Below, piece by piece: positions 37,648 through 38,506 of a DNA stretch of 64,000 nt (position 1 is the first letter of the stretch; each line of letters starts with the position of its first letter). Source of the stretch: Escherichia phage PHB12. The stretch lies in the sequence record MK524178.1. One strand, written 5' to 3'. The notes under the pieces were generated by a model that was not told the DNA's origin, ran no database searches, and saw nothing but the letters and a program-made list of their open reading frames with translations. The position numbers and the translations under genes are program-made.

Positions 37648-37676
37648 CCAAAAGGCCCCAACCATAAGGAAGGGGC
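37648..37676 (-). terminator. rho-independent terminator closing the tRNA/stable-RNA transcription unit (third copy of GCCCCAACC...GGAAGGGGC)
   Basis: Hairpin 37655-37676 followed on minus transcript by CUUUUGG. Confidence 0.6.
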
Positions 37677-37728
37677 TAAGCCTTGCGGCAACCTTGTCGG
37701 GGTTCCACCTGCTAAGGCAAGTGTTTGT

Positions 37729-37820
37729 ACGAAACGCCGGGATTCGAACCCGGTTATTAAGCAGTTGACGCTACTCAATATTTTTAAAAGGCCATATCTC
37801 GACCATATCCGAACGTTCCG
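37729..37820 (-). ncRNA. tRNA-like element (canonical T-arm and acceptor stem, non-canonical core); possible stable small RNA or degenerate long-arm tRNA
   Basis: Minus strand has CCGGG-TTCGAAT-CCCGG T-arm followed by CGTTTCG, which pairs with CGGAACG about 85 nt upstream; D and anticodon regions are AT-rich and do not fold canonically. Confidence 0.3.
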
Positions 37821-37988
37821 TCAAAAACGCTACTCGGCTTATAGCAAAGATATTTCCTCGAATCGATAATTCGGTGCGCCGTTTCTGCTGTGATGTAAGG
37901 GGATATTAACGAATCATAAAGATTTATTAAGACCAGTCCTTACACAGGGAACATCAGTCCGACGACTTGCCGGTAGCGACCCGGCTTC

Positions 37989-38333
37989 TTATTTTGGCAT
38001 ATTATCAATTTGCTCTCGACGCCGACGCCATAGATTAATCGCTTCATTAACACATTCGGCGTTTAGTATATGACGGCAATAATATAATGATTCGCGTTTC
38101 TGAAACCGATGTTGCAATGGGATTTCGTTTAAAAGGTCTTTGCGATCAAAGTATTCAAAACTAGTTAACCCGGAACGGTTTTTAATGAACTTCCAATGAC
38201 CAAATTCATTTTGGAAATAAACGTAATCAGCGTGTTGATATAACGAATTAATCAACCGGTCGGAAATAACTGTATCCTGTTCGTTAAAATAAAACGTTAA
38301 ATCATGAACTACCAGATAAACATTGCCTTTCAT
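37989..38333 (-). CDS. hypothetical protein within the tRNA region
   Basis: Track ORF 37989..38381 trimmed to ATG 38331-38333 (MKGNVYLVVHD...) because the upstream part overlaps tRNA-Arg. Confidence 0.4.
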   Translation of the reverse strand: MKGNVYLVVHDLTFYFNEQDTVISDRLINSLYQHADYVYFQNEFGHWKFIKNRSGLTSFEYFDRKDLLNEIPLQHRFQKRESLYYCRHILNAECVNEAINLWRRRREQIDNMPK

Positions 38334-38349
38334 ATTTTCCTCACTTAAA

Positions 38350-38426
38350 ATTGGTCGAGACAGAAGGATTCTAACCTTCAACCTACGGATTAGAAGTCCG
38401 TTGCTCTATACAATTGAGCTATGCCT
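38350..38426 (-). tRNA. tRNA-Arg (anticodon TCT), CCA encoded
   Basis: Hand-folded cloverleaf: acceptor CGAGGCA/TGTCTCG, D-stem GCTC/GAGC, anticodon stem ACGGA/TCCGT with loop CTTCTAA, T-arm GAAGG-TTAGAAT-CCTTC, 3' ACCA. Confidence 0.75.
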
Positions 38427-38432
38427 CGAATA

Positions 38433-38506
38433 TATGACCCAGACCAGATTCGAACTGGTAACCTTTCCCTTATGAGGGGACTGCTGCTAACCGTTGAGCT
38501 ACAGGG
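38433..38506 (-). tRNA. tRNA with CAT anticodon (Met or lysidine-type Ile)
   Basis: Hand-folded: acceptor GGCCCTG/CTGGGTC (one mismatch), anticodon loop CTCATAA, T-arm ACCAG-TTCGAAT-CTGGT; D-stem has one C-C mismatch. Confidence 0.6.

Follow-up and report, generated by a model that had tools for sequence, protein, structure and literature searches.

rnaC of Escherichia phage PHB12: a covariation-supported fold and a putative tRNA mimic in a T-even tRNA operon

The T4-type phages have been known since the 1970s to make the stable RNA rnaC (species 1 RNA). The reference annotation of T4 lists, in order, tRNA-Arg, rnaD (species 2 RNA, 119 nucleotides (nt)) and rnaC (139 nt), and it confirms the count of eight tRNAs from which the original prediction, made on the sequence analyzed here, had started. 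T4 RNAC was detected by northern blot as a discrete RNA (PMC9697503), and the function of RNAC and RNAD is stated as unknown (PMC3014915, PMC9697503). In the part of PMC2330249 that cites Broida & Abelson, the T4 cluster is described as a single transcript of ~1.75 kilobases (kb) that ends after the species I gene. Here we analyze the corresponding locus in a stretch of 64,000 nt from Escherichia phage PHB12 (sequence record MK524178.1), referred to below as the window. The original prediction had reported at this locus a reduced cluster composed of two tRNAs and a tRNA-like element; these components are present, but rnaD (37992-37873) and an open reading frame (ORF) of 114 residues (38333-37989) had been overlooked. 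We consider it probable that a T-even (Mosigvirus-type) phage has its tRNA operon here, with genes for two decoding tRNAs and for the stable RNAs rnaD and rnaC, the latter being a tRNA mimic.

Among RNAs from other systems, the tRNA-like domain of transfer-messenger RNA (tmRNA) and YrlA resemble rnaC in being non-decoding mimics of the acceptor/T-arm half of tRNA, and the 5' ends of both are matured by RNase P. We found no description of the fold or function of rnaC in the searchable literature, which did not cover the original papers from the 1970s-80s and after (Paddock & Abelson; Broida & Abelson; Miller et al. 2003). The present analysis adds a covariation-backed fold of the whole molecule, a candidate kissing loop, whose architecture may itself be undescribed, and a covariance model of the family, R1.

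Identity and fold of rnaC

By megablast, the window is nearest to T-even phages of E. coli and Shigella (JK45 and APCEc01, ~96%; Mosigvirus ATK47, 93.5%). The order of the features on the minus strand is tRNA(CAT), tRNA-Arg(TCT), the 114-residue ORF, rnaD, rnaC and a hairpin followed by a U run (Table 1). Positions 37995-37640 (350 nt) are non-coding and fold well above shuffled sequence (z -5.1). The tRNA-like element had been predicted at 37820-37729. Alignment with T4 places rnaC at 37866-37728, and therefore the flagged element is, on this alignment, the 3' two-thirds of a known gene and not a separate entity; its predicted 5' boundary was 46 nt short. The homology covers the full length of T4 rnaC without gaps (135/139 identical, 97%), and those of the four substitutions that fall at paired positions preserve the pairing. 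The gene lies downstream of rnaD and upstream of the terminator on the same strand, as in T4, and its coordinates coincide with those of the rnaC gene ("small stable RNA; species 1 RNA") annotated in ATK47. One of the options offered in the original prediction, a small stable RNA whose 3' domain resembles tRNA and whose counterparts in T4 are encoded beside the tRNAs, was thus essentially right, although the likeness to tRNA extends over the whole molecule and is not confined to the 3' domain.

Existing models do not recognize this gene. No family of Rfam 15 covered rnaC or rnaD, either at the gathering threshold or at E-values up to 10. The proposed Rfam scan did recognize the two tRNAs, whereas the flagged element went unrecognized; the custom model R1 scores the rnaC copy of the window at 152.6 bits (E about 1e-35). 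The tRNA model RF00005 (gathering threshold 29 bits) gave no match to rnaC even at an E-value of 10, and ARAGORN, run on the window, made no tRNA or tmRNA call there. The sub-threshold Rfam matches over rnaC were tRNA-Sec (16.6 bits against a threshold of 47, E 3.6) and, on the opposite strand, the model of the small RNA isrK; snoRNA models gave further matches at noise level in the region.

Table 1. Features of the PHB12 tRNA operon and structural elements of rnaC (nt 1 of rnaC = position 37866)
Feature	Window position	Strand	rnaC nt	Evidence or description
tRNA with CAT anticodon, ortholog of T4 tRNA-Ile	38435..38508	-		ARAGORN; RF00005, 52.4 bits; 72/74 identical to the T4 gene
tRNA-Arg(TCT), AGA reader	38352..38428	-		ARAGORN; Rfam, 71.1 bits
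114-residue ORF between tRNA-Arg and rnaD	37989..38333	-		ORF list; phrog_3355 (unknown function), E 1.8e-49
rnaD (T4 species 2 RNA) homolog	37873..37992	-		5' hairpin and long hairpin with variable tip; 98/121 identical to T4
rnaC (T4 species 1 RNA) homolog, putative complete tRNA-mimic RNA	37728..37866	-	1-139	139 nt; 135/139 identical to T4 rnaC
Acceptor-like stem, 5' strand CGAUUCG	37859..37865	-	2-8	Pairs with 37736-37730; 100% of cells paired
Helix 2, 3 base pairs		-	9-11 (AGG) with 76-78 (CCU)	Covariation fold
Long 5' arm in the place of the D arm, ~60 nt	37794..37853	-	14-73	Four sub-helices, all with compensatory changes
Apical loop UUGACG of the long arm	37819..37824	-	43-48	Proposed kissing partner; perfect complement of CGUCAA
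A-rich linker UUUUAAAAAU		-	79-86	Conserved in the homolog alignment
10-base-pair hairpin in the place of the anticodon arm	37755..37780	-	87-112	8/10 pairs covary
Hexaloop CGUCAA of this hairpin	37765..37770	-	97-102	Invariant except CGCCAA (Marfavirus-type) and CGUC-A (PM2)
Spacer, one A		-	113	Covariation fold
T arm CCGGG-UUCGAAU-CCCGG	37737..37753	-	114-130	Conserved in 33 homologs; middle pair G-C, U-A or A-U
Acceptor-like stem, 3' strand CGUUUCG, then U, then ACA	37730..37736	-	131-137	Abuts the T stem with zero spacer
Terminator-like hairpin GCCCCUUCC-UUAU-GGUUGGGGC, then CUUUUGG	37648..37676	-		Fold; homologous site in G4507 annotated as terminator

The fold was derived by aligning rnaC homologs, 13 to 33 at a time, that represent ten or more phage genera. 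RNAalifold, applied to a MAFFT alignment of 13 sequences, gave 41 pairs, 27 of which show compensatory changes (27-31 across the alignments). Counted pair by pair, 96.2% of cells were paired, against 40-50% when the partners were slid, and none of 500 shuffles reached the observed values. A trimmed alignment and one of 26 model-aligned sequences yielded the same fold, the latter being an alignment fitted to the covariance model. The minimum free energy (MFE) structure of the single sequence (-48.3 kcal/mol, z -4.4) also agrees with the covariation fold.

According to this model, the whole 139-nt molecule would fold as an oversized tRNA mimic, with an acceptor-like stem stacked on the T arm. 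The pairs of the acceptor-like stem are, in order, C-G, G-C, A-U, U.U, U.U, C-G and G-C. Two of the five Watson-Crick pairs covary, the third pair of the stem alternating between A-U and G-C; the tandem U.U mismatch is conserved, and both U.U become U-A in phage PM2. In Marfavirus-type phages and in PM2 the stem is followed directly by an encoded U and CCA. The perfect T arm seen in the original prediction is confirmed at 37753-37737, with conservation in the homologs and a compensatory pair.

The acceptor stem of the original prediction did not survive the comparison. It joined ACGGAACG (37821-37814) with CGUUUCGU (37736-37729), which are pairable in the window but do not form the stem of the family. 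Across the homologs this pairing is kept in 83.7% of cells; it is broken in 17 cells and a compensatory change occurs once, and forcing it costs 10.5 kcal/mol (-37.8 versus -48.3 kcal/mol for the MFE). ACGGAACG (nt 46-53) instead sits in the apical hairpin of the long arm, where it is 98.7-100% paired with five covarying pairs. Judged from the aligned homologs, it is the 5' end CGAUUCG, and not ACGGAACG, that pairs with CGUUUCG as the acceptor-like stem.

When rnaC is set against the canonical tRNA (RF00005), the two share a four-way junction, an acceptor-like stem that is built from the ends of the molecule and continues with no spacer into a 5-base-pair T stem with the loop UUCGAAU, a gene position inside tRNA arrays and, in some lineages, an encoded U and CCA. 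The order of a 7-position acceptor stem and a 5-base-pair T stem with a UUCRANY loop is present, with two U.U mismatches. In other respects rnaC departs from tRNA. The D arm is replaced by a 3-base-pair helix carrying an insertion of roughly 55 nt, and no D arm with a GG loop is found; a 10-base-pair stem with a hexaloop stands in place of the 5-base-pair anticodon stem and 7-nt loop, so that there is no anticodon stem-loop with U33 and a purine at 37; an A-rich linker of 8-10 nt is present; the acceptor stem holds the tandem U.U; and neither RF00005 nor a tRNA finder calls the molecule. Since the 7-nt anticodon loop is missing, rnaC cannot decode.

The comparison with tmRNA and YrlA also showed differences. 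No tag reading frame was found, nor any ARAGORN or Rfam tmRNA match on the window, and tmRNA has G3.U70, whereas position 3:70 of rnaC is A-U or G-C. In YrlA the ends of the RNA form the Ro-binding stem and the tRNA mimic is internal; in rnaC the ends form the acceptor stem. The only match of the YrlA model (RF02553, threshold 69) in the region scored 17.8 bits (E 1.1) and fell on the two tRNA genes rather than on rnaC.

The apical loop of the long arm and the hexaloop of the 10-base-pair hairpin are perfectly complementary to each other. Both are invariant over 33 sequences, Marfavirus-type phages and PM2 excepted, while the flanking stems vary freely, and the 6-nt complementarity is retained in 99.3% of cells. 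In the Marfavirus-type lineage UUGGCG occurs together with CGCCAA, which replaces an A-U pair by G-C. In PM2 one loop has lost an A and the other two U, a concerted shortening. No further independent covariation of the loops was found in six more genera or lineages besides the Marfavirus event. Because the Marfavirus lineage altered both loops jointly, we suggest that UUGACG and CGUCAA probably form an internal kissing loop, which would lock the body of rnaC.

Two further observations concern unpaired segments of rnaC. In a CIP9-like lineage (loci L016, 926-1067; L038, 5958-6099; L108, 4201-4342) the T loop UUCGAAU is changed to UGCAUGC, and the unpaired UGG by helix 2 to UCG; the altered GG are the unpaired bases just 5' of the 3' strand of helix 2. 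This joint change, found in one lineage only, may reflect a tertiary contact resembling the D-loop/T-loop interaction of tRNA. In T-even phages the junction linker of rnaC reads CUUUUAA (37784-37790, minus strand), and in other genera CUUUGAA, CUUACAA or CUUAUAA. CUUUUAA is the anticodon-loop sequence of E. coli tRNA-Lys(UUU), the target of the nuclease PrrC. A mimic of this anticodon loop was rejected, the sequence being unconserved beyond the T-even phages and lying outside any hairpin loop.

Processing, possible roles and distribution of rnaC

An RNase P-processed element was another option in the original prediction, and the anatomy of rnaC fits that of an RNase P substrate: a coaxial stack of 7+5 base pairs, a T loop, a U preceding the first pair and, in some lineages, NCCA. 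Together with the T4 literature, it suggests that rnaC would be co-transcribed with the tRNAs and then freed from the common transcript by the enzymes that mature tRNAs. RNase P would read the 12-base-pair acceptor/T stack at the 5' end, and the 3' end would be made by downstream cleavage and trimming. Excision in the manner of a tRNA would explain the accumulation of rnaC as a stable species.

As to the role of the released RNA, it could be a decoy or sponge that occupies a protein specific for the "top half" of tRNA, such as a defence nuclease directed at tRNAs or a host enzyme of tRNA processing or modification. That rnaC is a purpose-built tRNA decoy, which has kept only the acceptor/T-arm face and whose body is held rigid by the kissing loop, is a possibility that we regard as doubtful.

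Several points weigh against the reading of rnaC as a processed tRNA mimic with such a role. T4 deletions of the tRNA region grow on laboratory hosts, so that any function of rnaC would be conditional. The 3' tail of T-even rnaC is UACA rather than UCCA, and the annotated 5' U lies one base beyond the covarying stem. The kissing loop draws on one compensatory event and on conservation, plus one concerted reduction. The processing route and the ends of the RNA are read from the anatomy and from T4 annotation and literature, and the decoy role is a guess, no partner having emerged from the analysis. A pairing partnership between rnaD and rnaC was not borne out: their intermolecular pairing was no better than in shuffled sequences, 11% of which equalled the real value. 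Finally, BLAST of rnaC against 5,426 E. coli genomes gave no match, and mimicry of a host sequence was rejected on this search.

Four other explanations of the element were weighed. In the first, rnaC would be a trans-acting regulatory RNA that pairs with its targets through the conserved, single-stranded A-rich linker and a GAGGA near the 5' end. One paper loosely terms RNAC and RNAD "small regulatory RNAs" (PMC9697503), and the linker UUUUAAAAAU and several loops are conserved. However, the best-conserved pair of loops is mutually complementary and hence not free, BLAST on the E. coli genomes gave neither similarity nor an obvious antisense match and no target was identified, and according to a review no trans-acting small RNA has been characterized in T4 (PMC3014915). 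We therefore consider this explanation unlikely.

The second explanation denies a role to the free RNA and treats rnaC as the structured 3' end of the tRNA operon, a cis-acting element coupled to the terminator that directs processing or blocks exonucleases. Both in the window and in T4, rnaC is the last gene before the terminator, and the 80-nt trailer is conserved too. This arrangement is not general, however: rnaC is flanked by tRNA genes, far from any terminator, in Karamvirus, Kagamiyamavirus and Gelderlandvirus-type phages, and the discrete RNA detected by northern blot in T4 (PMC9697503) also speaks against a purely cis-acting element. A cis-acting 3' end is thus quite improbable.

The third, a degenerating tRNA with a long variable arm that has retained its T arm, was one of the options in the original prediction. 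A likeness to tRNA does exist in the T arm and in the 3' strand of the acceptor stem, there is the faint match to tRNA-Sec (16.6 bits, E 3.6), and 94-95 nt homologous to the element are called as tRNA by ARAGORN and GenBank in G4507 (tRNA-Lys(ttt)) and PG7 (tRNA-Met). These calls depend on the stem rejected by covariation, which is broken in most lineages. A conserved 7-nt anticodon loop is missing, RF00005 finds nothing, and rnaC is 97% identical to its T4 counterpart, while the adjacent tRNA-Arg is not even orthologous. The non-tRNA parts are the best conserved and covary in at least ten genera, and the 27-31 covarying pairs indicate that they are under strong structural selection. We reject the decaying tRNA as very improbable. 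A small protein-coding gene is hardly credible: a 45-residue ORF starting with TTG lies at 37641-37778 on the minus strand, and records of phages EI, EK29 and NM4.3 place coding sequences on the homologous stretch, but the annotated frames disagree among records, the homologs in G4507 and N2 carry 1-nt indels, and substitutions obey base-pairing rules rather than codon rules.

BLAST at lower stringency matched rnaC in about 745 phage records, with diverged copies (68-86% identity) in Karamvirus, Kagamiyamavirus, Kanagawavirus, Gaprivervirus, Moonvirus, Marfavirus and Mosugukvirus (Pectobacterium phage PM2), as well as in a Proteus phage classed in Gelderlandvirus. In PG7, EcS1, VPA32, the Proteus phage and others the gene lies inside a tRNA array with spacers of ~4-8 nt, like a tRNA gene, namely between tRNA-Trp and tRNA-Gly in PG7 and VPA32 and between tRNA-Phe and tRNA-Trp in EcS1. 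A loose motif scan of IMG/VR gave 80 loci for checking with the model, among which 9 were true homologs (10 places counting the window). Run on 81 sources, R1 returned 10 strong matches (at least 118 bits), one place at 23 bits and no other at an E-value of 0.01; in later scans each full-length homolog scored at least 109 bits, and stricter scans of IMG/VR and metagenomes added few rnaC lineages. The weak second match (23 bits, E 0.006) lies on the minus strand of a T4-like IMG/VR contig (L009, 1074-1188), ~600 nt from the true copy, and may be a long-arm tRNA or a diverged rnaC paralog.

In database records, parts of rnaC are annotated as tRNA in PG7 (L003, 1246-1340, tRNA-Met) and G4507 (L007, 1246-1339, tRNA-Lys), and hypothetical proteins with ribosome-binding sites are annotated over it at three loci (L014, 1016-1153; L127, 117-254; L123, 43-216). 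Both kinds of annotation are probably artefacts, which arise because an Rfam family for rnaC is missing.

Neighbouring genes and signals of the operon

ARAGORN and Rfam both give two tRNAs across the 64-kb window, on the minus strand, in agreement with the original prediction. The tRNA with the CAT anticodon would, from its sequence, probably read AUA after modification of C34. CAT tRNA genes of the tRNA-Ile kind read AUA once C34 becomes lysidine, and the CAT tRNA has C4-G69 and C5-G68, the pairs used by the modifying enzyme TilS. The assignment to AUA made in the original prediction is supported by the 72/74 identity to a T4 gene annotated as tRNA-Ile. AUA and AGA are both rare codons in E. 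coli, and in the 73 ORFs of the window they are used 13.2 and 8.5 times per 1000 codons, respectively. Given this usage and the rarity in the host, the two tRNAs retained in the reduced cluster are those whose presence is most clearly explained by codon supply.

The cluster is a mosaic: the CAT tRNA is near-identical to T4 tRNA-Ile, whereas tRNA-Arg(TCT) shows no close sequence relationship to T4 tRNA-Arg. Compared with T4, two tRNAs are present instead of eight, while the order of rnaD and rnaC after tRNA-Arg, the trailer and the terminator are shared. A gap of 1 nt separates tRNA-Arg from rnaD in T4; here the 114-residue ORF fills that junction, and the corresponding mobile insert of T4, segB, lies at another junction. 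No Pfam match of the ORF product rose above the cut-off, phrog_3355 being its only match. Its counterpart in ATK47 is annotated as RB69ORF150c-like. The PHB12 ORF ends within the first bases of rnaD, with its TAA stop at 37991-37989.

The second stable RNA, rnaD, is restricted to T-even phages of the E. coli type. Among the nine phages compared, the first 50 nt and the last 30 nt of rnaD do not vary, the distal stem covaries to some extent and the tip is hypervariable. The predicted fold has an MFE of -36.5 kcal/mol (z -2.8), and neither the fold nor the nine-phage comparison revealed tRNA-like features. A convergent single-nucleotide polymorphism in rnaD arose during adaptation to a semi-permissive host (PMC12685909), which hints at a host-dependent role for the rnaC/rnaD pair.

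That the cluster ends at a terminator was borne out by the terminator-like hairpin and short U run at 37676-37648. A pattern scanner made no terminator call at this site because the hairpin is followed by only four U. The 80-nt trailer between rnaC and the end of this hairpin (37648-37727, minus strand) is conserved with T4 about as well as the RNA genes, and has an extra hairpin, CUUGCCU-UAGC-AGGUGG. Upstream of the cluster, no late promoter TATAAATA was found within 3 kb on the minus strand, and a scan for sigma-70 promoters gave nothing above shuffled sequences. A weak MotA-box-like TGCTCTA, followed after 10 nt by CATAAT, lies just upstream of the first tRNA (38522-38544, minus strand).

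Meaning for T-even phages and their annotation

The locus as such is ordinary for a T-even phage; it matters for the question of function, for annotation and for the testable fold it offers. The fold replaces the picture of a tRNA-like 3' domain by that of a putative tRNA mimic spanning the whole molecule. Without an Rfam family for rnaC, records leave the locus blank, name a false tRNA or overlay hypothetical proteins, and the covariance model R1 tells true homologs, which score at least 109 bits, apart from noise. If the doubtful decoy role were true, rnaC would protect the infection by titrating or misdirecting a host tRNA factor, for instance a defence nuclease that cleaves tRNA or an enzyme that processes or modifies it. 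This would explain why rnaC is conserved in T4-like phages that infect many different enterobacteria and why it is dispensable on laboratory strains.

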